A DNA stretch of 64,000 bases from an uncultured Myxococcales bacterium (GTDB taxonomy: Bacteria; Myxococcota_A; UBA9042; PHBI01; JAAZYN01), in the NCBI GenBank assembly GCA_964478315.1, contig CAYZID010000001.1, positions 14,619 through 78,618 on the forward strand, written 5' to 3'. The notes under the pieces were generated by a model that ran no database searches, had not been told where the DNA came from, and saw only the letters and a list, made by a program, of their open reading frames with translations. Both the position numbers and the translations under genes were made by a program. Positions 29,445 through 50,503 of this stretch are shown here, one piece after another (positions within the stretch are counted from its first letter, which is position 1; each line of letters opens with the position of its first letter).

Positions 29445-29516
29445 GCCGACATAGCTCAGCGGTAGAGCAGCTGATTCGTAATCAGCAGGTCGGCGGTTCA
29501 AATCCGCCTGTCGGCT
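29445..29516 (+). tRNA. tRNA-Thr (anticodon CGT)
   Basis: Cloverleaf read by eye: acceptor GCCGACA/TGTCGGC, anticodon stem GCTGA/TCAGC with loop TTCGTAA, T-arm GGCGG-TTCAAAT-CCGCC. CCA is not encoded (followed by TACC). Confidence 0.8.
29473..29516 (+). repeat. attL core: 44-bp segment of the tRNA-Thr 3' half, identical to 50456-50499
   Basis: Exact 44/44 identity with the attR copy, read directly from both sites. Confidence 0.8.
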
Positions 29517-32218: not shown

Positions 32219-33385
32219 CTACGCCCCCTCGGCGCCGGGCGCCGTCAGCGTGTAGTCCTCGCCCGGGGACAGCCACGGATGCACCGTGATGCGGACATCT
32301 GTTCCGTTGGCAAGGAGGGTGGCGTCGACCGGGACCACATCGGCTCCGTCACCGTTGCTCGTGACGATCCAGCTGTCGGCCCCCTCCACGGTGTTCGGCG
32401 CCATCGCCGCGCTGAAGGACGCTCGCAGCTCGGTGAGGGACTCCACCGTCACCGAGAGAAGTGCCGGCGCTCCGACCTCATAGGCGCCCATCGACGGTGG
32501 GGAGGACCACGCCACTCCAGCTAGGTCGTCCGGCTCCCCGAGCGTCTGCGCCGCCCCGGCCCCAACACACGGGCTCGACGGCGTGAGCGTGTAGTCCCCG
32601 GAGGCCTGGTCGGCGAAGACCGGGTCGACGGACAGGGACGCCGCGTCCCCCACGGTACCGGAGTAGTCACCGTAGCCGTTGCCCCAAGCATCGCAGGCGT
32701 AGACCGTAGGAGCCGTGGCCTTGATGCCGTACTGGGTGTTCCCGGTCGCAACGACGTTGCGGACCGTCCCACCGAGTGCGTTCAGACCGTGCCGCCCGTT
32801 GTCGGACAGCGTGCAGTTCTCGACGACGGCGTTGGCGCCCGGGACGTAGGCGCCGTCGCTCGTGTTGCTGAACGCAAGGCAGGCAGACAGGGCGACGTCC
32901 GAGCCGTTGACGTAGAAGCCCACACCGCCGTTCCCGTCGGCTTGGCACCGATGGAAGGTCGAGAGGTTCCCGCCCACGTGGAAGCCGTCGCCACCGTTGC
33001 CCGACGAGCGGACGTGCGTGCAGTAGCAGTCCAGGCTCGTCCCGAGCGGCATCTCCACGCCGTGCCCGGAGGCCCCGTGGAACCACAGATGCTCCAAGGT
33101 GATGTCATCGTAGAGGTAGATGCCGCGCGTGTGCCCCGTTGCGTCCACCTCCGTGACCGTGTCGTCGCCCAGGTAGGCTCCAGCCCCCCTGATGGTGAGC
33201 CCCGTCTTGGTGGGGACGTAGATGTCCCCCTCCAGGTAGGGGCCCGCGTCCATCACCTGCACGATGTCGCCAGAGCTCGCCACGCTGACCGCATGCCCGA
33301 TGGTCGCGTAGGGCGCGCTCGCGGATCCATCGCCGGTCGTGTCAGAGCCGGTCGTAGCCACGTAGATGGTTGGGGCCGATGCCAT
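32219..33385 (-). CDS. right-handed parallel beta-helix repeat protein (tail fibre/tailspike-like)
   Basis: Repeated NGGxGxxV and SxNxxxG beta-helix rungs (GNGGDGFHVGGN...GNGGVGFYVNGSD...SDNGRHGLNALGG...GNTQYGIKA). Confidence 0.65.
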   Translation of the reverse strand: MASAPTIYVATTGSDTTGDGSASAPYATIGHAVSVASSGDIVQVMDAGPYLEGDIYVPTKTGLTIRGAGAYLGDDTVTEVDATGHTRGIYLYDDITLEHLWFHGASGHGVEMPLGTSLDCYCTHVRSSGNGGDGFHVGGNLSTFHRCQADGNGGVGFYVNGSDVALSACLAFSNTSDGAYVPGANAVVENCTLSDNGRHGLNALGGTVRNVVATGNTQYGIKATAPTVYACDAWGNGYGDYSGTVGDAASLSVDPVFADQASGDYTLTPSSPCVGAGAAQTLGEPDDLAGVAWSSPPSMGAYEVGAPALLSVTVESLTELRASFSAAMAPNTVEGADSWIVTSNGDGADVVPVDATLLANGTDVRITVHPWLSPGEDYTLTAPGAEGA

Positions 33386-33388
33386 CGC

Positions 33389-33979
33389 CTACTCCAAGAG
33401 CCGTTCGCGTTGGGCCGATACGGGACCGCGGCCCGTGTAGAGCGGCTGGAGCCTGCGTCGCAGGCGGTACGTGGCCGGGCACCGAAGACGCCGCACGACC
33501 AGCACGGCGTTCGGTACGACCTGCTCGTACGCCAGCTCGGGGCCCCATCGGACGACCACGCCGTAGAGCCCCGGCGGGGACGGGGGGGCGGCGAAGAGGA
33601 GGGTGTCCTTGGCCGCGTTGGCCATGGCGCCGTCACCGTGTCCGACGCGTGCGGAGTAGGCGCCGCCGCTTGCGGGGATCTCGCTCCCGTCTGCCGCGAC
33701 GAGGCGCACCTGGTAGGGGCCCTCTTCGGGCCAGGTGCCTGCCAGTTCCAACACGGCCCCGCCCTCGTCCGGAAGCACGGCCAGGCCAGTGGCGCCCGCG
33801 ACGACGAAGGCCGTGGTCCATGACGGGGACCCGAACCCGGTGTCGCCTTCGCCGCTGGCCGTCTCCGGGGTCGAGTCCGGGCTCCACGCCCACGGAGAGC
33901 CGAAGCCGTGGTCGAACACCTGGGCCTGCCCGGGGGGGCCGGCGGTGCTCGTCGACGAGCCGAAGCCGAGATCAGCCAT
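33389..33979 (-). CDS. phage tail-fibre module hypothetical protein
   Basis: Compact operon member. Gly/Ser-rich N-terminus. Confidence 0.5.
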   Translation of the reverse strand: MADLGFGSSTSTAGPPGQAQVFDHGFGSPWAWSPDSTPETASGEGDTGFGSPSWTTAFVVAGATGLAVLPDEGGAVLELAGTWPEEGPYQVRLVAADGSEIPASGGAYSARVGHGDGAMANAAKDTLLFAAPPSPPGLYGVVVRWGPELAYEQVVPNAVLVVRRLRCPATYRLRRRLQPLYTGRGPVSAQRERLLE

Positions 33980-33994
33980 CTCCGGCTCCTCCTG

Positions 33995-35053
33995 CTACCA
34001 CTCCAGCACGCAACGAATGCTGGCGCTCAGACCGCCGCCGGGCGGCGTGGGGCTCGCGTCGATGAGCACGGCGAGGATGTTCCCGGCGGACAGCGCGTGC
34101 CCGGCACCAGAGGCGCCGACAACCAGCGGGGCGTTGTCCGTGGAGCCCTGGGTTACCGGGAACTGCCCAATGTGGCGCCCGGCCGCGATGGCGCTCGCGA
34201 AGTCGTTGGCCTTGAACTCCGCCTCCGTCAGCTCGTAGAGGCTGACGACGTAGCCTCCACCTGCCGGGCCGCCGTCGGCGAACGTGAAGTAGGCGTCCTC
34301 CAGGGTCATCGCCTCGGGGATCTTCCAGTGCAGGTGGCACATCGAGTAGTTCCCGCTGAACTGCTTCTCGATGGTGCCAGGGCTCCACCCATCGCCCGTC
34401 ATGGACCCGTCGGCCTTGCCCGTGAAGTACACCCGGTTCTTCGTGGCCACCTTGGGCGCTGCCACGTTCTGGGGGGCCTCGGCCAGCAGCACGACGCCCT
34501 GTGCGGTCGTCGTCGCGACGGCGATGCCTGCCGCCCCGTGGGTGTGCAGGGCGTCCGCGTTGCCACCGCCGACCAGCGTGTCGAGTTGGGCCCCGGTCGC
34601 CACCGTGTCGTGGTCCGCGATGACCTGGGCATCGAGGTCGTGGACGGTGGCGTCCACCTGGTCGATGAGCGCATGGACCTGGCGGGAGTAGTCGCGCTCC
34701 CCGGAAGCCGGGCGCTTGAGGGCGGCGTACTGCGTCGTCACGCGCACGTGGACGAAGGCGCTGTTCGGGGCGAGCTGTCGCTGCGTCTCGCTCTTGGCGC
34801 TGGCGTCATCGGTGACGACCAGGAACAGCAGGTAGGTCCCTGCCGCGTCCACGTTCTGGAGCTTGGGGTTCTGGAGCGTCGCGTCGTCCAGCGCGGCGGC
34901 TGACCCGTCTGGCTTGTCGAGCAGGTACCACTGCCAGGCCGTGTAGGTCCCGCTGCCCCCAGTGGCGGAGCCCGAGAGCTGGTGGGACGCGACCGGGAGG
35001 GAGCTGTACGCGTACTCCGCGTCAACTCCTGCGTTCGCCACCGGTGCGGCCAT
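33995..35053 (-). CDS. phage tail-fibre-like protein
   Basis: First gene of the fibre operon. Thr/Ala/Gly-rich fibrous composition with C-terminal globular part. Confidence 0.5.
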   Translation of the reverse strand: MAAPVANAGVDAEYAYSSLPVASHQLSGSATGGSGTYTAWQWYLLDKPDGSAAALDDATLQNPKLQNVDAAGTYLLFLVVTDDASAKSETQRQLAPNSAFVHVRVTTQYAALKRPASGERDYSRQVHALIDQVDATVHDLDAQVIADHDTVATGAQLDTLVGGGNADALHTHGAAGIAVATTTAQGVVLLAEAPQNVAAPKVATKNRVYFTGKADGSMTGDGWSPGTIEKQFSGNYSMCHLHWKIPEAMTLEDAYFTFADGGPAGGGYVVSLYELTEAEFKANDFASAIAAGRHIGQFPVTQGSTDNAPLVVGASGAGHALSAGNILAVLIDASPTPPGGGLSASIRCVLEW

Positions 35054-35142: not shown

Positions 35143-35895
35143 CTAGGCCGCAGGCGCTGGCGCGTGGCTTGGGCCATCCGACCACATCGTCGGCATCTGA
35201 TCCCAGGTCCTGCCGTCGAGAAGGCGGCCTGCCTTCTTCTTGTTGCGCCCACCCCACTGCTTGAAGAAGAACGGGACGTCGGCTTCACGACACTGCCTGA
35301 GGATGTCCACGACCCACGCGGGATCCATCGGCCTTGGCCTGCGCCCGGACTCACCACCAACAATCACCCAGTGGATCCCGTCCAGAGGGAGCTTACGGAT
35401 CGGCCCAAGCAGGGGCTCAACCGACAGGAACCGGACGCTTGCACCCTCGACAGCCTGGAGGTCGGCAACTCGTGATGCACGCTTCTGATCTTCCACAGAG
35501 ACGCCCACCCAGACGTTGGTTGGCCACGGGAGTTCCTTCGCCAACGATCGCAGTCGGCCAGACCTCTTCGTGAGCACCTGGAACGTGTGCTGGTGCGCGC
35601 GGACCATGACGTCGAAGACCCGCTTGATGTAGCTGTCCGGAACCTCCTCATGGAAGAGGTCACTCATGGAGTTCACGAAGACGAGCCGTGGCTTGCGCCA
35701 CCTGAGAGGAAGCTCCAAGGCTTCGGGCACCAGCCGCAAGTCGAACCCCTGCTCGTAGGCGCTCCCCGGCACACCGCGGAACCGCTCAGCGAAGGCTTCC
35801 GCGTAGCAGTACTTGCACCCCGGCGAAACCTTCGTGCAACCGCGAACAGGGTTCCACGTCGCGTCCGTCCACTCGATGTCCGATTTGGCCGACAT
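35143..35895 (-). CDS. DUF5131 (phage Gp37/Gp68, three-Cys-motif) family protein
   Basis: N-terminal IEWTDATWNPVRGCTKVSPGCKYCYAE, C-x7-C-x2-C, as remembered for the Gp37/Gp68 family. ATG at 35895 with GGAGG upstream. AT-richer than the flanks. Confidence 0.6.
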   Translation of the reverse strand: MSAKSDIEWTDATWNPVRGCTKVSPGCKYCYAEAFAERFRGVPGSAYEQGFDLRLVPEALELPLRWRKPRLVFVNSMSDLFHEEVPDSYIKRVFDVMVRAHQHTFQVLTKRSGRLRSLAKELPWPTNVWVGVSVEDQKRASRVADLQAVEGASVRFLSVEPLLGPIRKLPLDGIHWVIVGGESGRRPRPMDPAWVVDILRQCREADVPFFFKQWGGRNKKKAGRLLDGRTWDQMPTMWSDGPSHAPAPAA

Positions 35896-35950
35896 GCTGC
35901 CTCCCGCGCTTTCCCCTAGAATCGTAGCTGCCAACTGAACGAAAGTCCAG

Positions 35951-37075
35951 TTATTGTGGCGGGAAGGACACCAAAGTGCGATCCGCCATCGTTGGAGTCC
36001 CATTCCTCTTCGGCCTGCTGCCGGCCGGGGGGGCGCACGTGACCTCGCCGGCCGCCTCCATCTTCACCAGAACGGCCTTGTAGTTCTTCTTGACGTACGG
36101 CGTGCCGACGTGGTGTTCGCGGATGATGTCATCAACCATGACGGTCCTGCCAGCGAACTTGCTGGCAAGCACTCGACGAAGGTGATCCGTTGACCGCGAG
36201 TACGGGAACAGCAGGCTCAGTTGCGGGTCATCAACAGGCGTGTACTCGAACCTGGCAACGCCATCCTCAGACTTCTCGCTTTCTCGGTACATGATGTCCT
36301 TCATGATCGAGTAGCCAAGAACATGCTTGGACGCGAAGAACAGGTAGTGGCTGGTTCGCTTGCCCCCGTCCGCGCGGAAGCGGAACGGGAGAACGTACTC
36401 CGCATTGCCGCGAAGCAGCCTCTCGCCGAAGGCGTTCACGATGACGTACTCCCGTGCCGTTGGCTCAAGACCCTTGACCCTTGCACGGAGAGCATCCGCT
36501 TCATCCTCACCGAATAGTGCGTTCATGTGTTGTGCAACCAGCTCGTTGCCGAGCCCCATGTTGATGCGGTTGTAGTTGAAGAAGAAGATGAGGTCCGTTC
36601 CCCAGTCCTTCAACGCCGCGTCGAGCAGTCGCAACGACAGCCCCTTGTACCCCCATGGGTCAAAGAAGACGAGGCTCTTCGGGATGGCCGTCTCTTCCAA
36701 CCACCGAGTCATCTCTTCGCCGACTTCGAAGTTGCCAACCAACGGTTCATGCTTCAGCTGCTTGATCCCTGGGAGTTCTTCGATGGCAGCACAAAGTGAG
36801 TCGGCGCTTGCCTGGTCGGCGTCGTTGAAGATGGCCCAAAGGGTCTCGCGCAGCTTTGGGTCCTGCAGTGCCATCTCCAGCACAAGGATTGGTGTGGACT
36901 TCGAACCGTCCTTGTACCGGCCTGGCCCCGCGAACAGGTCGATGTACCCGATCACAGGTGCGCCCACCTTCACCAACATCACCCTTGCCCATGCATCGAA
37001 GTACTTGCTGACGATCGCAGCCTTGACCGCGGACGCACCAGTCTGCTCATCAAAGAAGCTTGTCCCCATGCTCAT
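35951..37075 (-). CDS. TcmP-like (three-Cys-motif partner) protein; N-terminal SAM-MTase-like motif I (IDLFAGPG)
   Basis: Immediately upstream of the DUF5131 gene on the same strand, the arrangement described for the TcmP family. YIDLFAGPGRY resembles methyltransferase motif I. Assignment from memory of the family definition, not from a search. Confidence 0.45.
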   Translation of the reverse strand: MSMGTSFFDEQTGASAVKAAIVSKYFDAWARVMLVKVGAPVIGYIDLFAGPGRYKDGSKSTPILVLEMALQDPKLRETLWAIFNDADQASADSLCAAIEELPGIKQLKHEPLVGNFEVGEEMTRWLEETAIPKSLVFFDPWGYKGLSLRLLDAALKDWGTDLIFFFNYNRINMGLGNELVAQHMNALFGEDEADALRARVKGLEPTAREYVIVNAFGERLLRGNAEYVLPFRFRADGGKRTSHYLFFASKHVLGYSIMKDIMYRESEKSEDGVARFEYTPVDDPQLSLLFPYSRSTDHLRRVLASKFAGRTVMVDDIIREHHVGTPYVKKNYKAVLVKMEAAGEVTCAPPAGSRPKRNGTPTMADRTLVSFPPQ

Positions 37076-37104
37076 CTCCTCTCATGACACCACTTGCCTG
37101 CTTG

Positions 37105-37118
37105 TCAGGCATGCCTGA
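37105..37118. promoter_or_regulatory. perfect 14-bp palindrome TCAGGCATGCCTGA 30 bp upstream of the TcmP-like gene start (candidate operator)
   Basis: Read directly. Self-complementary. Lies in the 72-bp gap between the BRO-N gene stop and the TcmP-like start. Confidence 0.35.
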
Positions 37119-37147
37119 GGGGAGCATCTCACGCGCAGCGAACGCTG

Positions 37148-38290
37148 TCACGCCGCCTGGCACCGCTGCCCGGCCTGTGCGGGCGTTGCGGCACGGGCCT
37201 TCCGTGCGGCGCGCTGGCGGCGCTTGCGGTCGCGGTCCCGGGCCCGGGCCGCCTCGCGCTTCTTCTCCAAGGCCGCGATGGTGGCCCTGGCTTCCTCCAG
37301 CTCCCTGGCGAGGGTCCTGGCAACGTCCGCGTCGGGCCCCGAGGGAGGAGCAGCCGCAGGCTGAGGCGGCGCCATGAGCTGGTAGGGCTGCTGGGCGCCG
37401 CCCCCGAGGCGCTGGGTGAGCAGCTCTACGAGCTGCCGCTGGCCGGCCGCCGCCTGGGCCTGCGCTTCCACGACCTGCTGGGCCATGGACGCCGTGGCCT
37501 CTACGACGGCGCGGCCCATCTCCGTGACCGCGGCGAGGACTTGCTGGAGCCCGACATCGCCGCTGTCCGCGGACACGTCCTCGCCCGTCCGCGGACGCGC
37601 CGGCGGGGGAGGGGGCGACGCGGGGCGTGCGTTGGGCATCGAGTAGCTCCCCGTCCGGCGCAGCACTGGCAACACCTCGTGCGCCAGCCAGCGCTTGAAC
37701 CGCTGCGCCGCCTTCACGCGCGACGTGAAGATGAGCCGGTAGAGGCCGGGCTCGTTGATGGTGACAGCACGCTGCGTTCCACCGGACGAGCGCTTACCAG
37801 ACGTCTCCTTGTCGCGAAGGGGGTCCACAATCTGGACCCCCTTCTCGTCGTCGTCGAGCCGCGAGAGGACCTGCTTGTGGTTCTTGAGCCCAAGCGCTGC
37901 GCACACGTCCTTGCCCACGAACCAGGGCTCGCCGTCCTGCATGACGACGCGCACGTCGTGCCCCTCGAAGGCGAAGGGGGCCAGGGCCCGCTCAGCGGCC
38001 TCCGGCATGGCGGGCCCATCGAGCATCATGGCCCTGGCCTCATCGGCGTTGCGGGGCTGGGGCCTGCACTCGTTGTCGGCGCCCGGGTGGGTCGCGCAGG
38101 CCTCCACGACATCGAGCGCCCACGGGTCGCCGGCCTTCCAACGATCGTAGGTGGCCGGGCCGAGCTGGACGTACACCCGGCCGCCAACCTGCACGCCGCG
38201 GCCGTAGAGCCCGGGTGAGGCCGCTCCGTACTTGCAGATCGTCACGGCGTGACTAGGGTTGGGGCTGCTCAGCAGTTCTGGCTTGTTCAC
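37148..38290 (-). CDS. BRO-N domain protein (phage antirepressor-like) with Pro/Ala-rich linker and coiled-coil/basic C-terminus
   Basis: BRO-N core (FEGHDVRVVMQDGEPWFVGKDVCAALGLKN...VTINEPGLYRLIFTSRVKAAQRFKRWLAHEVLPVLRRTGSY). GTG start with AGGAG 7 nt upstream. Confidence 0.7.
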   Translation of the reverse strand: MNKPELLSSPNPSHAVTICKYGAASPGLYGRGVQVGGRVYVQLGPATYDRWKAGDPWALDVVEACATHPGADNECRPQPRNADEARAMMLDGPAMPEAAERALAPFAFEGHDVRVVMQDGEPWFVGKDVCAALGLKNHKQVLSRLDDDEKGVQIVDPLRDKETSGKRSSGGTQRAVTINEPGLYRLIFTSRVKAAQRFKRWLAHEVLPVLRRTGSYSMPNARPASPPPPPARPRTGEDVSADSGDVGLQQVLAAVTEMGRAVVEATASMAQQVVEAQAQAAAGQRQLVELLTQRLGGGAQQPYQLMAPPQPAAAPPSGPDADVARTLARELEEARATIAALEKKREAARARDRDRKRRQRAARKARAATPAQAGQRCQAA

Positions 38291-38312
38291 GTGAGTACTC
38301 CTGTTGGGCTGC

Positions 38313-38352
38313 GCCCCGCTGGCGCTCCAATCGCCAGCGGGGCTTTCTTTTC
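38313..38352 (+). terminator. GC-rich hairpin (12-bp arms GCCCCGCTGGCG/CGCCAGCGGGGC, 7-nt loop) followed by TTTCTTTTC
   Basis: Read directly. Terminator-like on the plus strand. On the minus strand it lies in the 5' leader of the BRO-N gene. Its role is ambiguous (insulator, operator or leader structure). Confidence 0.35.
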
Positions 38353-38379
38353 GACTACGAGTAGTATCCTAATACATGG

Positions 38380-38408
38380 TTGCTGCGCAAGCAACGCTGC
38401 CTTATCTT
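38380..38408 (+). promoter_or_regulatory. candidate promoter TTGCTG-17 bp-TATCTT driving a leaderless RHH gene; -35 lies within inverted repeat TTGCT-GCGCA-AGCAA
   Basis: The -10 ends 6 nt before the ATG at 38415 and there is no SD. Inverted repeat at 38380-38394. Confidence 0.4.
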
Positions 38409-38414
38409 CATGTC

Positions 38415-38603
38415 ATGGCGAAGCGCACCGGAGAAAAGACCGAGCTGATCCAGGCACACGTCACCCCCGAGCAGTTCAAGAAGCTCGACGACTGGGCGTG
38501 GTCGCACCGGATGACGCGCGCGGAGGCCATCCGCCAGCTCCTGAAGGTGGGGATGGCCTACTGGGAGGAGGCGTCCGCGCGGGGCGAGGAAGGCGCGGGA
38601 TGA
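38415..38603 (+). CDS. ribbon-helix-helix (CopG/Arc-like) DNA-binding protein
   Basis: 62 aa. Predicted beta strand (TELIQAHVTPE) followed by two helices (QFKKLDDWAWSHRMTRAEAIRQLLKVG). Divergent from the BRO-N gene. Confidence 0.55.
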   Translation: MAKRTGEKTELIQAHVTPEQFKKLDDWAWSHRMTRAEAIRQLLKVGMAYWEEASARGEEGAG

Positions 38604-38872
38604 TCCTTAGCTGGCCACCGTGTTCTGTAGGCCGTAGGATGTACTTCGCAACGGAGGTGGTCGGGATGGGACGCAAGATGCGTCAGAAGGCGCGTGCCCT
38701 GCTTAGCGGCATGAACAACGCCCTTGCCTTCACCGGGGACATCTCTCCTCGCCGCAAGCACTTCAGTGGCCCAGAACGTGACGCCGAGAACATGGCGCGC
38801 GACTGGGCTTGGACGATGCACGACTTCAAGGTGGCATGTGAGCAAGAGGCGAGGCGGTCGCAGACAACCTAG
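38600..38872 (+). CDS. hypothetical 90-aa protein translationally coupled to the RHH gene (ATGA overlap)
   Basis: Strong G/C bias at third codon positions in this frame, unlike the overlapping 38724 frame. No recognisable domain. Confidence 0.45.
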   Translation: MILSWPPCSVGRRMYFATEVVGMGRKMRQKARALLSGMNNALAFTGDISPRRKHFSGPERDAENMARDWAWTMHDFKVACEQEARRSQTT

Positions 38873-38924
38873 CAGCGCTCCTGCAAAGGCTGACACAACC
38901 GTCGAGGTAGGATCGCAAGCTGCT

Positions 38925-39362
38925 CTGCCGGCCGATCATGTCGTTGCGACGACGTTCTACGCATCACGCGGCCCACTCCCTGCCCCTGAGCTTCTTCGGG
39001 CCTACGAGATGGCTGTACCAGGCTTGGCCGAGCGCATCGTCATGCACATGGAGGGTGAGAGGGACCACAGGTTCGAGATGGATCGGGCCGTGCTCAAGAT
39101 GGAGCGGCTCGGGCAATACCTTGCGGCCGGGCTCGCCATGGCTGGGATCGCTGGCGGTGTGACCTTCGCAGCCCTGGGCGCCCCATGGGCCGGGGCAGTT
39201 GTTGGCGTCATCGTCCCGCTCTCTGTTCTCTTGCGCGGGGTGTTCAAGGTGCGCCACGGGGACAGCGGGCTTGAACTGGACACGCGGGCTCAGAGCCCAC
39301 CGGCTGCGCCGGAGGACACGAACGAGAGAGGTCCGCAAGCCACAACGACCGACGACGGCTGA
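38925..39362 (+). CDS. DUF2335-like membrane protein (start codon uncertain)
   Basis: Conserved-looking GPLPAPELLRAYEMAVPGLAERIVMHMEGERDHRFEM followed by two TM helices. No in-frame ATG/GTG/TTG between the upstream stop (38872) and this motif. 38925 is an in-frame CTG after GAGGTAGGA. Next ATG is at 39009. Confidence 0.4.
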   Translation: MPADHVVATTFYASRGPLPAPELLRAYEMAVPGLAERIVMHMEGERDHRFEMDRAVLKMERLGQYLAAGLAMAGIAGGVTFAALGAPWAGAVVGVIVPLSVLLRGVFKVRHGDSGLELDTRAQSPPAAPEDTNERGPQATTTDDG

Positions 39363-39412
39363 CATCCTCGCCCTCCGCTGCTACCGTCGTCGTGACCAGC
39401 GGAGGTGCCACG

Positions 39413-40075
39413 ATGATGCGAGCTGTTCTCATGACGATCTTGTTGCTGCTCCTGCCCCTCCCCACGGCGTCCGCGAGGTCGCTGTGCGGCGAACTCGACG
39501 CCATGCCGTCGGACCTGGACGCGACGACGTGGACGGCCTACGGCTGCCTCAGCCGGAGCGACGCGGGCGACTACTGGGATCAGTGCTTGAAGCGCAAGGA
39601 CTACACGCGCAAGCGCGGTGGCGGTTGCCCAGGTTCGCAGCGGTGCTGCCCCGGTGACGCCGTCTTCGCGGCGAAGATGAGGGAGCGGGAGCAGGCCGTT
39701 CGGGACGAGCAAGCGCGGAAGCGCTTGGAGGCCGCGGCCGTGGACGCGGCAGAGTTGGGCGAGGACCACGGCTCGGGGGCGTCAGCCTTCGCGGTGCTGT
39801 ACGCGGTCTTTCTGTTCGGCGGCCCGGCGTTGTTCTTCGGCCTCATGGCACTCGTGCTCGGGCTCTTCCTGCGCGGTGGAGGGGCTGAAGGGGTCGCAGG
39901 GGCCGTGCTCGGGTCCGTGGCTGGGTGGATGGTCGTCTTCGCCGCGTCCGGCGGGTGGGCTGCGATGTTGCTCGGCTACGCCATCGTCGCTCCAACAACG
40001 TTCATCGGCGCCGTCATCGGCCTCGTCATCGGCGTCAAGAAGGCGCGGGCGAGAGAAGCGCTGCTGGGGCCGTAG
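39413..40075 (+). CDS. membrane protein with signal peptide, Cys-rich extracytoplasmic domain and C-terminal TM helices
   Basis: MMRAVLMTILLLLLPLPTASA signal. 7 Cys in the first 90 aa. Hydrophobic C-terminal 100 aa. Confidence 0.5.
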   Translation: MMRAVLMTILLLLLPLPTASARSLCGELDAMPSDLDATTWTAYGCLSRSDAGDYWDQCLKRKDYTRKRGGGCPGSQRCCPGDAVFAAKMREREQAVRDEQARKRLEAAAVDAAELGEDHGSGASAFAVLYAVFLFGGPALFFGLMALVLGLFLRGGGAEGVAGAVLGSVAGWMVVFAASGGWAAMLLGYAIVAPTTFIGAVIGLVIGVKKARAREALLGP

Positions 40076-40080
40076 GCGAG

Positions 40081-41271
40081 CTAGCCGTTGTCGGAACCGT
40101 CGTCATCGGTCTCGTCGGAGTGGCCAAAGCACCTCTCCATGAGTTCCCAGCCGCCGGCCGTCTCCGACCACATGGACCTTGGCCACGCGTAGAGCACTCG
40201 CGCACCTGGTCCGATGATCCTGAACGCCATCACCTTGGTGGTAACGCCGCGGAGCTTCACGCGCTGCCGCAGCGGGAACCGCAGCAGCTTCCTCATCCGC
40301 GCTGGGATCGCTTCCACGGTTCTTGTGGCCTGCCCTTCGACGCGAAGGATCGCCTGGAGAACCAGGTCTTCCGCGGCCTTCCGGATTGCTTCTGCCTCGT
40401 CTTCTCCAGCATCCACATAGAAGGACCGCCTCGTTCCGCGCACGTAGTAGCGGTGGTTGCTGTTTCCAAGCAATGACAGAGCCTTGCCCGGCTGACCAAC
40501 AACCATGAACACCTCGTCTGCTGTGTTCAGCTCATCGCATGCTGGCCCGCCAACATCCGGCTCCGAGCAAGGGCGACTTGCGCCCCATGGCGATCCGACC
40601 CAACCATTCCACGTCACCGGGAACCTGTGCCGCTTGAAGTCGTACTCTCCAAGAGGAACCGTCATGGTCGAACAGACCATCTTGCCCTTCGCCTTCTTCC
40701 TGAAGGCCTTGCGAGCCCTGATGCATCGTCGGTACTCGAACTCGTTGAAGTGCTCACGGGACTTGTAGACGTCGCAGTTCCTGAACCAGTTGCCGAGGAA
40801 GTCCCCATACGGTGGGGGCTCCATGGTGTTGGCCAGGAGCTTCTCGAACGGGCCCCATGAGGCGCTCCTCTCGTTCCTACGCTCTGCGGCCTCTCCTGCG
40901 GCCTTCCCCTCCTCTTCCTCGCCATCAGGCGTAGTGGCCGGCTCTTGGCACCTGCGGTTGGCCTCGTCAAGCTCGGCTAGGGCCTTCTCATTCCTGCGCA
41001 TCTCCTCCACCAACGCGTCCTTGCTGGCCTTGAGCTGCTTGAGGCATCCATTGCGCTCGTCGCGAACGACCTGCTCTCGGACGCTTGTCTCCTTCTGGGC
41101 CGTCGTGCACGACCGCAGTTCTTCTTGTACACGCTTGAGTTCCTCCGCTCGTTCGTCGCGCTCCCTCACGACCCGCAAGTAGGTCTCACTGGAGACGCAG
41201 CTCGGCAACCACAGTGCGGACGCAACCACCACGACGGCCCAAGCTACAACACGAAGCCAACCATCACGCAT
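40081..41271 (-). CDS. secreted coiled-coil protein with Cys-containing C-terminal domain, unknown function
   Basis: ATG at 41271 (MRDGWLRVVAWAVVVVASALWLPSC). Charged coiled-coil region, then globular C-terminal half. AT-richer codon usage than the backbone. Confidence 0.5.
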   Translation of the reverse strand: MRDGWLRVVAWAVVVVASALWLPSCVSSETYLRVVRERDERAEELKRVQEELRSCTTAQKETSVREQVVRDERNGCLKQLKASKDALVEEMRRNEKALAELDEANRRCQEPATTPDGEEEEGKAAGEAAERRNERSASWGPFEKLLANTMEPPPYGDFLGNWFRNCDVYKSREHFNEFEYRRCIRARKAFRKKAKGKMVCSTMTVPLGEYDFKRHRFPVTWNGWVGSPWGASRPCSEPDVGGPACDELNTADEVFMVVGQPGKALSLLGNSNHRYYVRGTRRSFYVDAGEDEAEAIRKAAEDLVLQAILRVEGQATRTVEAIPARMRKLLRFPLRQRVKLRGVTTKVMAFRIIGPGARVLYAWPRSMWSETAGGWELMERCFGHSDETDDDGSDNG

Positions 41272-41424
41272 CGCGACCTCCCAGGGAGCACAACAGGTCG
41301 GTCGGATGGTACGGGGCTTGGCGACCAGCATGCAAGCACGGAGACCACCCAGGAACACTGGCTTCCGTTGTGGCAGGCGCCAACTCATGAAGAGGCTCTC
41401 TGGAGCGGCGCAAGGCGAGGCCGA

Positions 41425-42561
41425 CTACGGCCGCCCGAACCCAGTCAGGTAGAAGCTCTGGTCCGTGAGGACGCCGTCCTTCGTGAGGTGCACCCGGAAG
41501 GTCGTGTAGTTGGTGAGCGGGTCGTAGTTGAGCACGGTCACGCACGCCGCGAAGGTGGCGGCGGTGGGGGTATAGAAGTCCGCCGCGTCGGAGGCCGGCG
41601 TCACGTGGACGGTGTTCAGCACGCCCTCCACGACGATCTCGACCACGCCCGCGCTCGGCGAGCTGTAGCTCTTGATGTTGCCCTTGTGGTCCGACGCGCT
41701 GTAGCCCGGGGAGCCCCCGGTGTAGTTCATCCGCCCCGACGTGATGACCGTCACGTCGTAGAGGGTGTCCTGGATGTTGGTGATCTCCGCCTCGGCGTTG
41801 GACAGGCCGGTCTCCAGGTCGGTGACCGCGGTGTCCAGCTCCGTGAGGTCGCGCGCGGGGGCGCCGAACCACGTCTTCGTTCCCGCCTTGTCCTGGATGG
41901 TCGCCAGGGCCGCGATGATGGTCGTCAGCGCCTGGGACACGCCGAGCTGCGGGTACATCCCCATGATGGCCCTGACGCGCGTCTCCGCCCCCCCCAGCCC
42001 GTCGTCGTTGTAGTCGAAGGGGCTCAGCATCACGATCGCCGGCACGTTCCCGTTCCAGCTCGTGACGCGCGCGAACTGGAACCACCCGGCGCTCCCGTCG
42101 GGCTCCGTCACGCCCACCCCGAAGACGACCCGCTGGCGCGACACCGTCTTCGGTGACGGGCTCATGGCCACCTCGGTCCCGGTCGCCGCGTCCCACGCCT
42201 TGCGCAGCTCCTGGTCCGTGTCGAAGCCCACCGCACGAGCCCACAGGTAGGGGGTCTGCCCGACCTGGCCGGAGAGGTCCACCGTGGAGATCTGCCCCGA
42301 GGCCGCGGGGTCGTGACGCACGACGGTCCCCGTGGGGATCTTCCCATCGGTTCCCGCCGGCGCCGCGGTGAACAGCAGCCCAGCCCCGATGGACACCGCG
42401 GCGATGTTCGTGGTGTCCAAGGCGCACCCCGACAGCACGCCAGCTCCTTCCCCGACGAGACCACCGAGCATGCGGCCCAGGTACTCGTCCACGAAGGTCT
42501 GGATGCGGTCGAGATCCACCAGGTCGAGGCGCTCGTCGTCGTACAGCTTCACGAAGTCCAT
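41425..42561 (-). CDS. phage tail/baseplate-associated protein (gpI/tail-fibre-like, downstream of J)
   Basis: ATG at 42561 with AGGAG upstream. Sits directly after the baseplate J gene. Confidence 0.5.
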   Translation of the reverse strand: MDFVKLYDDERLDLVDLDRIQTFVDEYLGRMLGGLVGEGAGVLSGCALDTTNIAAVSIGAGLLFTAAPAGTDGKIPTGTVVRHDPAASGQISTVDLSGQVGQTPYLWARAVGFDTDQELRKAWDAATGTEVAMSPSPKTVSRQRVVFGVGVTEPDGSAGWFQFARVTSWNGNVPAIVMLSPFDYNDDGLGGAETRVRAIMGMYPQLGVSQALTTIIAALATIQDKAGTKTWFGAPARDLTELDTAVTDLETGLSNAEAEITNIQDTLYDVTVITSGRMNYTGGSPGYSASDHKGNIKSYSSPSAGVVEIVVEGVLNTVHVTPASDAADFYTPTAATFAACVTVLNYDPLTNYTTFRVHLTKDGVLTDQSFYLTGFGRP

Positions 42562-42614
42562 GTCGGTCTCCTGGGCCCACGGGGCCCTGGTCGGAGGGTG
42601 GGGCTGCTGGGGTG

Positions 42615-44048
42615 CTAGGTGACGTCCACCAGGTCTGGCTTGGTGCGGAGCACGGTCCGCAGGTCTGCGGGTTCCACGTCGCCTGTGGGGCTCTCGATGG
42701 TCGCGAGGCGCAGCCCGTCCACGCGCTTCAGAGCGCAGCGCACGTCGCTGAGGACCATCGCCTGGCCCGGCCCGAGGGACGCCAGGATGGCAACCAGCTC
42801 GTCCTTGACCGTCGTGCGCAGGGTGGAGACGTCCACCCCGGTCCCATCCGCCACGATGCGGACCGTGAACGACACCCACTGCACCGTGGGGGCGACCACG
42901 CGCACGCGCGTCCCGGCCGCCCGGTAGCCTGGGGAGCCGAAGATGTCGGACGGGTCGCCCTCGATGGCCGCCTGGAGCTCGCGGAGCACGCCGGTGTAGA
43001 CCTGGTAGTTGCGGATCCTCCAGTGGTCCCCCGGCGAGAACAGACCCGCCTCGGGCCGCGGGTAGAGGAGCCCGCGCTCCTCCTGGATGAGCCACGGGGC
43101 GTCCTGACCCTGCGCGAAGGTGAGCTGCAGCCAGTTCGCGCCGTCCCCGCGCTCCACCGTGTAGGTGGGCCCCACCATGGGGGCCTCGAAGTAGAGCGAG
43201 CGGGCCCCGTTGGCTGGGATGACCCCGGTCACCTCCGCGCCATCGCGGGTGAACCCGACCATCCCGGAGCCGTCGTCGACGACCAGCTCGGCGTAGCCCG
43301 GGCGGAAGGGGTCCTCGAGCAACGCAGCGTGCCGCAGCCGCACGCCGTCGGAGCCCTGGAACGTGCGGGCGAGGTACAGCAGGGCCGCACCCTGGGACCG
43401 CGCCAGGCCCGACAGGAACAGAAGCGCCCGCTGGCGCAGGGCGTCGTCGCTCTCCCTGTCCGTCCCGCCGGCGACGGGCGCCACGTTGGTCACCGATACG
43501 ACGCCATCCGGCATCGCCACCGGGATGGTGAGCGTCCCGCTGGCCGCGTTGCCGCGGGTGCCGCGCGTCGTGCAGACCACCTGGATGGGTGGGGCTGAGC
43601 TGTTGGGCGGGTAGAAGGCCTCCCCTACCTGCATGGTGACGGTCTGGGTCGTCACGTAGACCAGGGTCGCGTCGTCCTTGTGGGCCACCCTGGAGCCCGC
43701 TGGGATCTCGAGCGCGGTCGACGTGTCCGTGCGTTCGACGCGGAGCACGGGGCCCGCGGCGGGGGCCGCACCGAGCCGCGGCGTGAAGCCTGGCGGCATG
43801 TCCATCAGCCGGGCGTCCAGGTCTTTGCCCTTGGCATCCAACCAGAAGGCGTCGCGGATGGCGCCAAGGCGCTCCTCGACTAGCTCGAACTCCTCGGCGA
43901 TGACTGCGAGCACGTGGCGCAGTGAGGAGCTCTCCGTCAGGTCGACCACGGATGGGCGCATACGTGCGACGAAGCGTGCGCCCAAGCCCTGCTCGATCTC
44001 CTCGCGCGTCCGGGGCTCGAACTCCCCAGGCTGGTTCGACGTGGTCAT
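42615..44048 (-). CDS. baseplate J-like protein
   Basis: Length and position between W-like and I-like genes. Sequence features consistent with the Baseplate_J family. Confidence 0.6.
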   Translation of the reverse strand: MTTSNQPGEFEPRTREEIEQGLGARFVARMRPSVVDLTESSSLRHVLAVIAEEFELVEERLGAIRDAFWLDAKGKDLDARLMDMPPGFTPRLGAAPAAGPVLRVERTDTSTALEIPAGSRVAHKDDATLVYVTTQTVTMQVGEAFYPPNSSAPPIQVVCTTRGTRGNAASGTLTIPVAMPDGVVSVTNVAPVAGGTDRESDDALRQRALLFLSGLARSQGAALLYLARTFQGSDGVRLRHAALLEDPFRPGYAELVVDDGSGMVGFTRDGAEVTGVIPANGARSLYFEAPMVGPTYTVERGDGANWLQLTFAQGQDAPWLIQEERGLLYPRPEAGLFSPGDHWRIRNYQVYTGVLRELQAAIEGDPSDIFGSPGYRAAGTRVRVVAPTVQWVSFTVRIVADGTGVDVSTLRTTVKDELVAILASLGPGQAMVLSDVRCALKRVDGLRLATIESPTGDVEPADLRTVLRTKPDLVDVT

Positions 44049-44057
44049 GTGGGACTC

Positions 44058-45641
44058 CTATCTGTTGCCCGGCTTGGGGACGGGCGCCATGAGCTGGATG
44101 CGTCCGCCGTGATGGGCCACGAGGTGGAGGTCGGCCGTGATGGCGTCTCCCTCGTCGGTGACCTCGATGCGTTCGACCTTGGCGATCCTCGGGTCACGGA
44201 GCGCTTGCCGGCGCGCGTGCGCCGCAACAAGAGCCGCCGCCTCGTTCCCGATGTCCTCACCCACGAGCTTGGGCAGCCCGAGGGCGGGGAAGGGGCCGCA
44301 CTCGCCCTGGACGGTCGCGAAGCGGGTCGTGATCCCCTGGCGCAGGTTGGCGGGGCCGCGCACCCACCGAACATCAGTGGCCTCTGCGCCGTCGAGCGCC
44401 CAGTCCCCGTCCTTAAGGAGGACATCGCTACCGTAGGGGTCGCCGTCGCCGGACATCTCGGCGCCATCTCCCTGCCCGCCACCGCCAGGGAGGGAAGGAA
44501 CCAAGATCGTGATGCCGGGGCGGAACGGGCTCCCGTCGTTCATCATCGTGGCCGAGGTCATCCCGTTGAGGTCCGCGATGAGCTTCCACCAATCCCCGCT
44601 CCCAAGAAGCTCCTCCGCGATGTCGCGCAGGGTGACACCGGCGGGCACGATGTAGGAGACGACCGCGGCGTCCGGCGGCAGCTCGGCCGGAGGCGCCATC
44701 CACGACGCGAACGGGACGTCCCCTCCCTCGCCACGACCCGCGCCAGCGACGCCAAGAAGCTCGTCGGCCCGACGCTGCGTGTCACCGATCGGCGCGAGGA
44801 GGCGCATGATCGTATCGCGGCTGGCGCCCCGGTGCGCCTGTGGCAGGCTCTCCCACTTCGCGATGATGGACGCGCGGGAGTTGGCGGCGACCCTGGAGAT
44901 CTCCGCGGCCATGGCGAACGGGAAGGTCACGACGCCGCGCAGCTCGTCCATGGCATCTAGGACCGCCAGCACAGTTCGCCCAAGGGCGCGGATGGGCTCC
45001 TTGAACTCCTCCAGCGAGTAGCGGAGGTCGCTGAGGAGCAACTCGGTCTGCGCCAAGTAGGCGTTCGCGGAGTTGATGAAGGCCGTCGCCGCGCGGGCCC
45101 TCGTAACAGCCGACGCGAGGAGCCCGGTCGGAAGCACCTCCTCGGTCGCGTAGGCGCGCAGGGACAGCTCCCAGCCGGTCGTGAAGTTGTGCTGGTCCAC
45201 CGACTTGGACCTGCGGATGCTGCTCGGCTCCACGAGGTATGCGTGCCCGTAGTCCAGGGCGAGGAAGACCATATGGATGCGACGCGGCTGCGTGCGCGCC
45301 GCAGCGCCACTAGCCACGACTTGCCGTCCTTCAGCAGCTTGCGAGTCCTCCTGGTAGCGCCCGAGGAACTCCTCGAAGGCCTCCACGTGCTCCTTGCCAG
45401 TGATGAAAGCTTCGCCGCCGTTCGCCGTGCGTGCCGCTCGCGGCCCGTAGCCCGAGGTTCCGCGCAGCAGGATGCGCGTCTCGCGCACGCCGGTGTGTTC
45501 CCGCTCCGGCTCCGCGCCAAGCGTCCAGGTGAGCTGCGACGCCTCGTCCCGCGACACGTCGTAGGAGGACACGGGGGGCAGGATGAAGGCTCGGTCCAGC
45601 CGATCGTCCTCGTAGACCTGCAACATGAACCGGACCTTCAT
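44058..45641 (-). CDS. baseplate protein with LysM-like segment and C-terminal GPW/gp25-like domain
   Basis: LysM-like YIVPAGVTLRDIAEELLGSGDWWKLIADLNG. gp25/W-like C-terminus (RFATVQGECGPFPALGLPKLVGE...KVERIEVTDEGDAITADLHLV). Confidence 0.6.
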   Translation of the reverse strand: MKVRFMLQVYEDDRLDRAFILPPVSSYDVSRDEASQLTWTLGAEPEREHTGVRETRILLRGTSGYGPRAARTANGGEAFITGKEHVEAFEEFLGRYQEDSQAAEGRQVVASGAAARTQPRRIHMVFLALDYGHAYLVEPSSIRRSKSVDQHNFTTGWELSLRAYATEEVLPTGLLASAVTRARAATAFINSANAYLAQTELLLSDLRYSLEEFKEPIRALGRTVLAVLDAMDELRGVVTFPFAMAAEISRVAANSRASIIAKWESLPQAHRGASRDTIMRLLAPIGDTQRRADELLGVAGAGRGEGGDVPFASWMAPPAELPPDAAVVSYIVPAGVTLRDIAEELLGSGDWWKLIADLNGMTSATMMNDGSPFRPGITILVPSLPGGGGQGDGAEMSGDGDPYGSDVLLKDGDWALDGAEATDVRWVRGPANLRQGITTRFATVQGECGPFPALGLPKLVGEDIGNEAAALVAAHARRQALRDPRIAKVERIEVTDEGDAITADLHLVAHHGGRIQLMAPVPKPGNR

Positions 45642-48144: not shown

Positions 48145-49227
48145 CTAGTCCCTCACGTGCCCACCGACGTGCAGGAGCTTCTTGCCGTCGCTGTCCTTGC
48201 TGCCTGGCGTCGGTGTCTTCTTGTGCGAGTCCTCGCTCGCCGCAATGGTCTTCTTGATTGCGTCATCCATGGCGCCGAAAGAACCACCAAGGAGACTCGC
48301 GACCTTGAGGATCGCCTTCGTGAGCATCTTGGCCCCGTCGCCAACCTTGTTCATCGTGTCCTTCAGTTCCTCAACGGTTGCAATCAGATCCTTCGCATCC
48401 TTGTTGCTCATGGTGTTGAGCCGCGCCTGCTGCGCGGCAGCCACACGACCCATCAGCCCGGCAGCTCGTCCAGACGGAAGCGACGGGAAGCTCGGTTCCT
48501 TCAGCCTCCCAGCCAGTCCAGTTGCCATCCCGCTCGTGGCCCCCATCGACGCGAAGCCCAGTGCCGCCGTACGCCCACCGAACATCTCCACCATGGCCTT
48601 GCGGGTGATGTTCGGGTCGCCCTGCATCTTCTCGATGGCCTTGACCATCCCGAGGACGCCCCCGCCCGACTGAGCGGCCCTGGCGAGAAGCGCCGAGCGC
48701 GCCAGCCCGCCAAACGGCCCGAGCAACGTGCTTCTCGCATCCGCTTGGGCCCGCGAGAGGCTCGCCGAGACCGAGCCGAGGCGCATCCCCTGCCCCTTGA
48801 AGGGCCCACCCGTGGCCTGCATCCGCGCGGCGAACTCCTCCATGCGCGAGACGTTGACGTTCAGCCCCTGTCTCCCCATCTCCGCCGTGTTGGCGGCGAT
48901 GGCTTGGAGGAACTGATCCACGCGTGCCCCGCGCAGCCCTTCCTTCATCGCTAGGGAGACCATCCTGACGATGTTCCCTCCCGTGCGCGTTCCGCCAACA
49001 CCCGGCGCAAGTTGCCCGCGGTAGGCCGCGATGGCGCCGAGGCCCACACCGCGCGTCATGAGGCGCAGGAAGTTCGGGTGGCTACCAGACAAGAAGCCGA
49101 CCTGTTGCCCGAAGGCCTGCGAGAGTGCAGCCGACTCGTCCGGCATGTAGCCGTAGCCGGCACGAGAGGCGCCAGGACCGGACAAGGTCGCCATACCTCG
49201 CATCCTCTGGATGCGTGCCTTCTGCAT
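48145..49227 (-). CDS. tail tape-measure-like protein, C-terminal portion only (probably truncated)
   Basis: Gly/Ala/Met-rich low-complexity TMP-like sequence. The track ORF runs to 49437 but would overlap the divergent integrase 5' end. An internal ATG at 49227 is used. Only about 360 aa, too short for a myovirus TMP. Confidence 0.45.
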   Translation of the reverse strand: MQKARIQRMRGMATLSGPGASRAGYGYMPDESAALSQAFGQQVGFLSGSHPNFLRLMTRGVGLGAIAAYRGQLAPGVGGTRTGGNIVRMVSLAMKEGLRGARVDQFLQAIAANTAEMGRQGLNVNVSRMEEFAARMQATGGPFKGQGMRLGSVSASLSRAQADARSTLLGPFGGLARSALLARAAQSGGGVLGMVKAIEKMQGDPNITRKAMVEMFGGRTAALGFASMGATSGMATGLAGRLKEPSFPSLPSGRAAGLMGRVAAAQQARLNTMSNKDAKDLIATVEELKDTMNKVGDGAKMLTKAILKVASLLGGSFGAMDDAIKKTIAASEDSHKKTPTPGSKDSDGKKLLHVGGHVRD

Positions 49228-49330
49228 GGCGAGTTGGTATCGCTGCGCAAGGGCTGCCCCACCGACTGCGGCCAAAGCGCCAAGTACTGGAACGGAGGCA
49301 CCGAGTCCTCTCCCAAGACCGGCAATCCAG

Positions 49331-50455: not shown

Positions 50456-50499
50456 GATTCGTAATCAGCAGGTCGGCGGTTCAAATCCGCCTGTCGGCT
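50456..50499 (+). repeat. attR core: displaced 3' half of tRNA-Thr followed by an encoded CCA
   Basis: Identical to 29473-29516. Followed by CCA (50500-50502), unlike the intact gene at attL. Confidence 0.8.
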
Positions 50500-50503
50500 C
50501 CAA

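Follow-up and report, generated by a model that had tools for sequence, protein, structure and literature searches.

A ribbon-helix-helix gene facing a BRO-N gene in a decayed prophage of an uncultured Myxococcales bacterium: a possible immI-like control module with a predicted antisense RNA

The locus described here lies in a 64,000-nucleotide stretch of DNA of about 70% GC from an uncultured Myxococcales bacterium (contig CAYZID010000001.1; the whole stretch is referred to as the window). A gene for a BRO-N, Ant-like protein and a gene for a 62 amino acid (aa) ribbon-helix-helix (RHH) protein are divergent there, separated by exactly 124 bp (38291-38414). An earlier reading of the letters (the original prediction) had described the region as resembling a lysogeny switch, either the remnant of a prophage immunity or anti-repressor circuit, or a toxin-antitoxin or abortive-infection module made up of the RHH gene and a 90-aa open reading frame (ORF) behind it. 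The motifs that it had listed (the hairpin, the inverted repeat, the -35 and -10 hexamers and the ATGA overlap) were all found at the positions given, and the length of the gap was exact; of the borders of the region, the left one (37105) was placed about 40 nt beyond the BRO stop codon. Every reading frame around the locus is backed by third-position GC (GC3). The only diverged close relative is a 704-bp metagenome contig, L001, with which the locus was compared. The features that the following paragraphs rely on are these:

37148-38290, minus strand: BRO-N (Ant-like) gene, 380 aa, GTG start
38232-38259, plus strand, inside BRO codons 11-20: candidate antisense promoter, TTGCAG (38232-38237), 16 nt, TAGGGT (38254-38259)
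38266-38351, plus strand: predicted cis-antisense RNA of about 85 nt, covering the BRO start codon and Shine-Dalgarno sequence and ending at the hairpin and U-tract
38298-38302, minus strand: BRO Shine-Dalgarno sequence AGGAG (CTCCT on the plus strand), 7 nt upstream of the GTG, identical in L001
38313-38351, plus strand: GC-rich hairpin followed by TTTCTTTT, resembling an intrinsic terminator, with 12-bp arms and a 7-nt loop at 38313-38343
38366-38394, minus strand: candidate BRO promoter, -35 box TTGCTT (38389-38394), 17 nt, -10 box TAGGAT (38366-38371)
38379-38395, no strand: 17-bp palindrome GTTGCT-N5-AGCAAC, single copy in the window, probable RHH operator
38380-38408, plus strand: candidate RHH promoter, TTGCTG (38380-38385), 17 nt, TATCTT (38403-38408)
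38415-38603, plus strand: RHH regulator gene, 62 aa, GC3 0.90
38666-38872, plus strand: orphan ORF, most likely 68 aa, with GGAGG (38653-38657) 8 nt before the ATG at 38666

Taken singly, the 62-aa protein had no match in Pfam and only chance matches in a sequence search of the PDB, and in PHROGs it matched phrog_4738, 'transcriptional repressor', at 8e-6. Its AF2 (AlphaFold2) model (pLDDT 77.5), which is that of a monomer and hence without the RHH strand that forms only in the dimer, consists of an extended N-terminus and helices at residues 18-30 and 35-55. The top Foldseek matches of this model were almost all RHH proteins (MazE6-N, AmrZ, CopG, Arc, NikA, TacA), every one with an E-value above 1. 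RHH-like genes seen upstream of BRO genes in three other loci (L005, L010 and L023) were used to seed a profile that retrieved 2046 small proteins, and a family profile (A5) was made from an alignment of 27 of the retrieved proteins, the window protein not being among them. Compared by hhalign with this independent profile, the 62-aa protein matched with 97.1% probability (E = 5.7e-11), and hmmsearch with A5 in the whole window found this ORF only (4.9e-10). Fourteen of 30 family members match the Pfam family RHH_1 (PF01402), and NikR matches the family profile through its RHH domain (E = 0.006). By these profile matches the 62-aa protein is an RHH regulator of the CopG/Arc/MetJ type, as had been claimed when it was described as divergent from a BRO-N gene. 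The family consensus reads M-KSI..KKRGRP..VRL.PDQL.ALDAWI..TRPEAIRRLVE.GLKAK; the AT-hook-like N-terminal arm KKRGRP stands ahead of the RHH strand in most members of the A4/A5 alignment.

In the 52 codons that could be compared with L001, the RHH gene carries about six synonymous and three non-synonymous changes (dN/dS about 0.15), which suggests that it is under purifying selection. An ATG further upstream, which would give a 75-aa version of the protein, meets a TAA in L001; 38415 is therefore the shared RHH start. Across the gap and the RHH gene, the window and L001 share about 94% of the aligned positions, and the similarity stops precisely where the RHH gene ends. The gap appears to be constrained: 8 of 127 positions differ (6%), about one third of the roughly 18% seen at synonymous sites, and a run of 73 nt, reaching from the hairpin as far as the palindrome's left arm, is unchanged. 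Searches with a two-sequence alignment found no relatives of the RHH gene in viral, genome and metagenome contigs, the exact DNA pattern of the operator had no match in metagenomes and that of the hairpin none in viral contigs; modules of the window type are rare. In the segment 383-704 of L001, a terminator-like hairpin (GCCCCCGGGCG...CGCGGGGGC plus TTCCTTTG) lies behind the RHH gene and precedes a second, paralogous RHH-like ORF (BLASTP 4e-4), the frame of which apparently shifts after about 28 codons.

The -10 box of the candidate RHH promoter ends 6 nt before the ATG at 38415, and this ATG is not preceded by a Shine-Dalgarno sequence. The promoter agrees with the consensus at 7 of 12 positions, which is below the threshold of the scan tool used, and its counterpart in L001 reads TATCGT-N6-ATG. 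Among 16 loci of the family, T(-12) was found in 12, A(-11) in 13 and TT at -35/-34 in 12-13, and a Shine-Dalgarno sequence was absent from 14. As judged from this alignment, the RHH genes of the family have a promoter at a fixed distance and the ATG at +1. Because a -10-like box 6 nt before an ATG without a Shine-Dalgarno sequence is conserved across the family, the RHH mRNA is likely to be leaderless, and this part of the original prediction appears to have been right.

The inverted repeat TTGCT-N5-AGCAA, which had been noticed to overlap a -35-like hexamer, is real and extends by one base pair on either side to GTTGCT-N5-AGCAAC. Both arms are kept in L001, and both of the changes that L001 shows here fall in the spacer. 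The arms coincide with the -35-like hexamers of two back-to-back promoters on opposite strands, those proposed for the RHH and the BRO gene, so one bound repressor would cover both. The BRO promoter matches the consensus at 7 of 12 positions and is fully conserved in L001. The centres of the half-sites are 11 bp apart, a spacing that suits two RHH dimers, as on the Arc operator. The palindrome is a probable operator of the RHH protein; what speaks for this is the conservation of the arms, with the L001 changes confined to the spacer.

The protein encoded on the other side of the gap matched Pfam Bro-N with E = 6e-25 and phrog_130, 'anti-repressor Ant', with E = 2e-50. The Bro-N domain comprises residues 113-208 (about 37667-37954). 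The first 100 aa and the coiled-coil, basic C-terminus are unique, with no relatives in 33 BRO loci. The gene has a GC3 of 0.88, and its first 12 codons are conserved in L001.

Between the Shine-Dalgarno sequence of this gene and the palindrome lies the hairpin 38313-38343, the only inverted repeat with 12-bp arms in the 64-kb window. Its fold has z-scores of -3.4 and -3.5 relative to shuffled sequence, and the hairpin with its T-tract is identical in L001. Since the plus strand is free of genes for over 3 kb upstream of it, the simplest role of this hairpin and its T-rich tail would be to terminate a short plus-strand RNA. A candidate promoter for such an RNA is found within the first BRO codons, and L001 has TTGACG-N16-TAGGGT at this place although the coding and protein sequences diverge there. 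The segment 38266-38351 folds at -47.3 kcal/mol (z = -5.9), mostly due to the terminator, and the region of the BRO start and Shine-Dalgarno sequence is unstructured on the mRNA strand. No Rfam family was matched at its gathering score. Membership in two Rfam families was considered and rejected: the match of the window to sX13 (24.7 vs 50 bits) and that of one relative, L044, to the antisense RNA (countertranscript) model of the IncQ plasmid R1162 (40.7 vs 55 bits) are both below threshold and driven by the hairpin.

In the relatives of the RHH gene, a GC-rich hairpin is found at the same place, between the Shine-Dalgarno sequence of the divergent gene and the RHH gene. The layout common to the family consists of the start of the divergent gene, an anti-Shine-Dalgarno sequence, the GC-rich hairpin with a T-tract on the RHH strand, the -10 box, 6 nt and an ATG without a Shine-Dalgarno sequence. 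The window agrees with this layout in position and orientation, its hairpin and T-tract being on the strand opposite to the left gene and located between the Shine-Dalgarno sequence of that gene and the RHH gene. In an alignment of 14 loci the stem was 95.8% paired, compared with 77% after shuffling (none of 500 shuffled sets reached the observed value) and at most 58% in slid controls. Compensatory changes affecting both sides were seen in 10 of the 12 stem pairs, and there were 28 G·U cells on the plus strand vs 2 A·C cells, which correspond to G·U on the other strand. When the hairpin motif was searched as a DNA pattern, at least 120 viral contigs in IMG/VR were found; among 72 distinct viral copies the plus-strand fold was the more stable one in 69, by 4.7 kcal/mol on average. 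This asymmetry argues against a protein-binding DNA palindrome and against an element of the minus-strand mRNA, and on the evidence of covariation the hairpin in the relatives is an RNA element on the RHH-sense strand.

A promoter-like signal was also found at a constant place in the relatives. When 64 viral loci were anchored on the opposing start codon, a position-specific pattern, TTG...N17...TA.A.T...N6...A, appeared within the first approximately 12 codons. The proteins whose genes carry this internal signal all begin with M-A-(E/D) and are otherwise unrelated (HNH, GIY-YIG, Rha/BRO and small ORFs). In the 14 RHH loci, TTG was present 16-18 nt upstream of a hand-picked TA-hexamer in 7, vs a background of 5.6%. 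A covariance model (R1), built from 12 relatives and describing the unit of GGTTAGRGCCGG, hairpin and T-rich tract, found new copies in L011, L014 and L027 (E-values 7e-4 to 3e-7), each of them followed by an RHH gene and facing a BRO operon.

Taking the viral loci and the relatives together, the recurring unit may be regarded as a cassette in which the promoter of a short RNA would lie inside the first approximately 12 codons of the controlled gene, the body of the RNA would carry the anti-Shine-Dalgarno sequence, and the terminator hairpin would overlap the promoter region of the opposing transcript or transcripts. In viral contigs an RHH gene was present in only 25 of 80 cassettes; about one third of the cassettes appear to be coupled to a leaderless RHH repressor gene with locus-specific operators. 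In all of the seven relatives that were looked up, 70-190 bp separate the RHH gene from a divergent neighbour, and an integrase is usually close by. A Bro-N gene forms part of the opposing operon in L005, L010, L011, L014, L027 and L038 and, among the viral loci, in 3 of 21 that are linked to RHH (L055, L079, L100) vs 0 of 39 that are not. In L023, the RHH gene and the BRO gene follow each other in the same direction, in an arc-ant-like arrangement. The association of RHH and BRO genes is recurrent, not obligatory. If the cassette is real, it would represent a compact means by which phages silence accessory genes, including nucleases and antirepressor-type genes, and it would be a useful marker of accessory-gene boundaries.

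Some further observations were made on the cassettes, which are found in L050-L129 (IMG/VR) and in L005, L010, L011, L014, L027 and L038-L049, and are absent from Rfam. Their elements are arranged in the order gene start (TCAGCCAT, opposite strand), CTCC stem-loop, GGTTAGRGCCGG, covarying hairpin and T-rich tract. Read on the other strand, this tract gives TAAAAT, possibly a -10 box for the left gene. The genes behind the cassette also include Zn-finger-like ones. In the viral cassettes (A8 alignment, columns 1-4 with 42-45), a 5' AGCC can pair with the GGUU of GGUUAG; this pairing (A-U, G·U, C-G, C-G) would close the stem-loop with the anti-Shine-Dalgarno sequence, both of its sides being invariant and free of covariation. 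The window has an analogous helix of 12 bp, formed by 38264-38275 with 38301-38312. In RHH-linked cassettes, locus-specific repeats flank the RHH ATG (L058, L068, L078, L090, L097, L100, L107, L118, L128), for example GTGATAACAT...ATGTTATCAC in L107, GTACGCGATAT...ATATCGCGTAC in L097 and AGGTAAAACC, which occurs twice, in L090. These repeats look like co-evolving operators; the window has no such pair.

By analogy with the relatives, the most likely role of the window hairpin is to terminate an antisense RNA of about 85 nt, predicted to overlie the BRO start. The original prediction, which had listed the hairpin among its motifs, missed that it is probably an RNA element of the RHH-sense strand with this role. 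The matter has to be weighed against an account in which control is exerted by protein only, and the hairpin is an insulator in front of the RHH promoter or a stabilizing stem at the 5' end of the BRO mRNA. Several observations fit such an account and weaken the case for an antisense RNA at this locus. Being a perfect palindrome, the window hairpin folds equally well on either strand, and only the T-tract and the analogy with the relatives set its strand; the candidate antisense promoter is weak, and the 5' stem of the predicted RNA is no better than that of shuffled sequence (z = -1.2). The covariance model R1 does not recover the window hairpin (4.8 bits on the plus and 10.5 bits on the minus strand) and leaves it out of the cassette family, and both the window and L001 are without the invariant GGTTAGRGCCGG box and without the ATGGCT start of the left gene. 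Between the window hairpin and the -10 box there are about 50 extra nt, which carry the 17-bp palindrome, and the RHH proteins of the window and L001 lack the KKRGRP arm; with these two differences the logic in the window may not be the same as in the relatives. Against the protein-only account stand the tolerance of the relatives' stem for G·U on the plus strand only (28 vs 2 cells, 69 of 72 copies more stable on that strand), the lack of an upstream plus-strand gene for the hairpin to terminate, the conservation of a promoter-like signal at a fixed distance inside unrelated coding regions, and the retention in both the window and L001 of TAGGGT together with a TTG hexamer 16 nt before it. 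Control by protein only is therefore considered unlikely, if far from negligible, and the terminator of an antisense RNA is retained as the preferred reading of the hairpin. Whether this RNA belongs to the phage family is a separate question: that the window hairpin is a diverged copy of the widespread, so far undescribed phage cis-antisense RNA cassette of about 80 nt is put forward tentatively, as something possible rather than probable.

The second half of the original prediction concerned the ORF downstream of the RHH gene. It was proposed there that the RHH protein is the antitoxin and the 90-aa product the toxin of a type II toxin-antitoxin or abortive-infection module, the two genes being coupled through an ATGA overlap. 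Such an overlap does exist at 38600-38603, and a small RHH gene followed by a small ORF with an ATGA junction is reminiscent of type II systems (ParD, CcdA, VapB, MazE6), as is the fold of the window RHH protein, which resembles N-terminal domains of antitoxins. Many RHH proteins are antitoxins, and the Foldseek matches include MazE6, VapB and TacA. Moreover, the GC3 of the ORF is coding-like (0.75-0.77 vs 0.51-0.58 at the other codon positions). Most of the evidence points the other way. The start at 38600 (90 aa), within the ATGA, was used by one gene caller only; the NCBI and JGI annotations start at 38639 (77 aa), and the best ribosome binding site belongs to the ATG at 38666, which lies 63 nt after the RHH stop. 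Homologues of the ORF were sought in an index of 5.8 billion proteins and by an exhaustive HMMER search of 1.84 billion representatives, and both returned self matches only, apart from three HMMER matches that proved to be translated tandem repeats with summed weak scores and were rejected as artefacts. There was no match to a Pfam, PHROG, NCBIfam or PADLOC family. The profile and structure comparisons that had been suggested for the two proteins gave an RHH profile match and RHH-like Foldseek neighbours for the 62-aa protein, whereas the ORF was modelled as a plain two-helix hairpin (pI 10.4) for which Foldseek returned generic helical hairpins and no toxin fold.

The surroundings of the ORF in other loci are equally unfavourable to a module. 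The homology with L001 does not extend past the RHH stop, behind which that contig has a terminator, in seven more family members the downstream gene differs each time or is absent, the genes found there being mutually unrelated, and the ORF was not seen after the RHH gene in any of the family relatives examined. In the RHH protein itself, helix 2 is followed by about seven non-conserved residues, with no C-terminal extension that could hold a toxin. The locus differs from type II systems in lacking a conserved partner, any toxin family or fold, and a C-terminal extension for toxin binding. A toxin-antitoxin or abortive-infection module is very unlikely, and the ORF, which is not a functional partner of the RHH gene, is probably a real but orphan accessory gene separate from it. 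Paralogy between the RHH protein and the ORF product was also considered and rejected, since the DWAW[ST] motif that they share is a match of five residues only. Between the RHH stop and GGAGG there is a promoter-like sequence, TGGCCA (38612-38617), 17 nt, TAGGAT (38635-38640), which is possibly the ORF's own promoter; its TAGGAT hexamer is the same as the candidate -10 box of BRO. The end of the ORF is overlapped by a DUF2335 gene.

The locus is part of an integrated element, the relevant features of which are listed here (attL and attR, left and right attachment sites):

29445-50500: integrated element carrying the module, from tRNA-Thr/attL to attR
29445-29516: tRNA-Thr(CGT) gene, attL
35143-36003, minus strand: DUF5131 gene (Pfam DUF5131, 1.5e-100)
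35951-37075, minus strand: TcmP-like gene (TIGR04474, 9e-52) with a GMT-wHTH domain
49211-50281, plus strand: tyrosine integrase gene (Phage_integrase, 1e-18), adjoining attR
50456-50500: attR, a 45-nt direct repeat of the 3' part of the tRNA-Thr gene

Host genes are found outside both ends (CoaBC and Vut_1 on the left, MlaC and PlsB on the right). The 21 kb between the repeats contain baseplate and tail-fibre genes (Baseplate_J, phrog_6, phrog_975 and a beta-helix fibre), and no head, terminase or replication genes were detected in them. The element is a decayed, head-less prophage; alternatively, an att-flanked element of this composition is possibly a tail-only element. The RHH and BRO genes belong to an accessory island of mosaic content (35143-41388), inserted between the tail-fibre genes (32219-35053) and the baseplate genes (41425-45641).

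This location bears on the view that the RHH protein is the primary lysogeny-switch regulator of the element, the equivalent of CI or Cro. In favour of it, the RHH genes of the family usually adjoin a divergent promoter region and have a phage integrase no more than 3 kb away (L039-L043); that of L040 is the first gene of a rightward operon beside int. In the window, the integrase is 11 kb away, the module is enclosed by tail-fibre and baseplate genes, the genes around it are of the moron type (the TcmP/DUF5131 pair, DUF2335 and the orphan ORF) with no replication or early genes adjacent, and the partner of the RHH gene is of the BRO/Ant type. A primary switch seems improbable on these grounds, and the best reading is that the module is an accessory island inside the tail genes. 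Of the original prediction, the remnant anti-repressor circuit has survived, in an immI-like form, and the primary CI/Cro lysogeny switch has not.

A third possibility is that the module mainly controls a defence operon borne by the prophage and consisting of BRO, TcmP and DUF5131. The last two match PADLOC candidate defence systems (PDC-M30A/B and PDC-M41, as M41B) and TIGR04474. They lie downstream of BRO on the same strand, separated from it by a gap of 72 nt in which no terminator-like site was found by a scan that covered 37000-39500 only. On the other hand, their GC content is 59-64% vs 71% for BRO, which suggests a separate insertion, and a conserved BRO-TcmP-DUF5131 linkage had to be rejected: TcmP is beside BRO in 0 of 33 other BRO loci, and DUF5131 is near BRO in one of them (L033, about 4 kb away). 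Control directed mainly at defence genes is rated as rather unlikely, a little less so than a primary switch, and it would be compatible with the explanation that follows.

The explanation that we favour, with confidence slightly above even, is that the locus is an immI-like ('ant moron'-like) control module that has been kept in the decayed prophage. In such a module, the 62-aa RHH repressor would be made from a leaderless transcript and would most likely bind the 17-bp palindrome GTTGCT-N5-AGCAAC. Binding would repress the RHH gene and the divergent BRO gene together, and perhaps also TcmP and DUF5131, which lie behind BRO. A block of translation would be added by an antisense RNA of about 85 nt, predicted to begin within the first BRO codons and to be complementary to the Shine-Dalgarno sequence and start codon of BRO; this block would be comparable to that exerted by sar on ant of phage P22 or by RNAII on repB of plasmid pMV158. 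The BRO protein would be the putative antirepressor whose synthesis is held in check.

Besides mnt, arc, ant and the sar RNA, the ant moron of P22 includes sieA and genes without a known function; it adjoins the tailspike gene and varies strongly between related phages (PMC2629481). The window shares with immI the small RHH repressor beside an antirepressor-type gene, the divergent or overlapping promoters, which are candidates in the window, and, as predicted here, the short antisense RNA over the ribosome binding site of the antirepressor gene. It shares with the ant moron the variable island in a late or tail gene cluster, with exclusion-type genes and genes of unknown function. The differences are that the window RHH protein has no detectable homology to Arc or Mnt at Pfam thresholds, that there is one RHH gene, probably leaderless, and not two, that the Ant-like protein is of the Bro-N type and has unique ends, and that the setting is a head-less prophage in a host of about 70% GC.

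An established pairing of an RHH repressor with an antisense RNA is known from pMV158, where CopG and RNAII are described as controlling repB, RNAII being a short, terminator-ended antisense RNA that blocks initiation of translation of the controlled gene (PMC4485353). The dual control, by an RHH transcriptional repressor and, as predicted here, an antisense RNA, resembles what is described there. The pMV158 system controls plasmid copy number, and its repressor is co-transcribed with the target, whereas here the repressor gene is divergent from the target, the setting is a prophage, and there is no homology at family thresholds.

Not all observations favour an immI-like module, and those that count against it concern both the proteins and the DNA sites. 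The term 'antirepressor' is for the BRO protein an annotation label only: its homology to P22 Ant is below threshold (P22_AR_N, 17.6 bits vs a cut-off of 30.7), and no CI-type repressor that could be the target of an Ant protein is apparent in the decayed element. The promoter scan tool reported no sigma-70-like site in the region, and agreement with the consensus is limited to 7-8 of 12 positions in each of the three proposed promoters; these assignments were made by comparison and are weaker than scan-supported ones would be. A 6-bp arm with a 5-nt spacer, as in the proposed operator, can be expected by chance in about 8% of 124-bp windows. If the immI-like reading is correct, the logic of P22 immI, in which an RHH repressor and an antisense RNA guard an Ant-type gene among tail genes, would recur in a distant lineage of high GC content. 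A speculative 'switch or toxin' would then be replaced by a defined control module with coordinates for an operator, three promoters and a predicted antisense RNA.

Beyond the orphan ORF, the island continues on the right with the following genes:

38838-39362, plus strand: DUF2335 membrane protein gene (Pfam, 1.9e-8; phrog_3996, 'moron ... membrane protein', 1e-19)
39392-40075, plus strand: gene of a 227-aa membrane protein with several apparent hydrophobic stretches and a weak second match to DUF2335
after the 227-aa membrane protein gene, convergent: gene of a 435-aa protein

The DUF2335 protein and the 227-aa membrane protein (38838-40075, plus strand) may be exclusion-type proteins, analogous to the product of sieA in the ant moron of P22.

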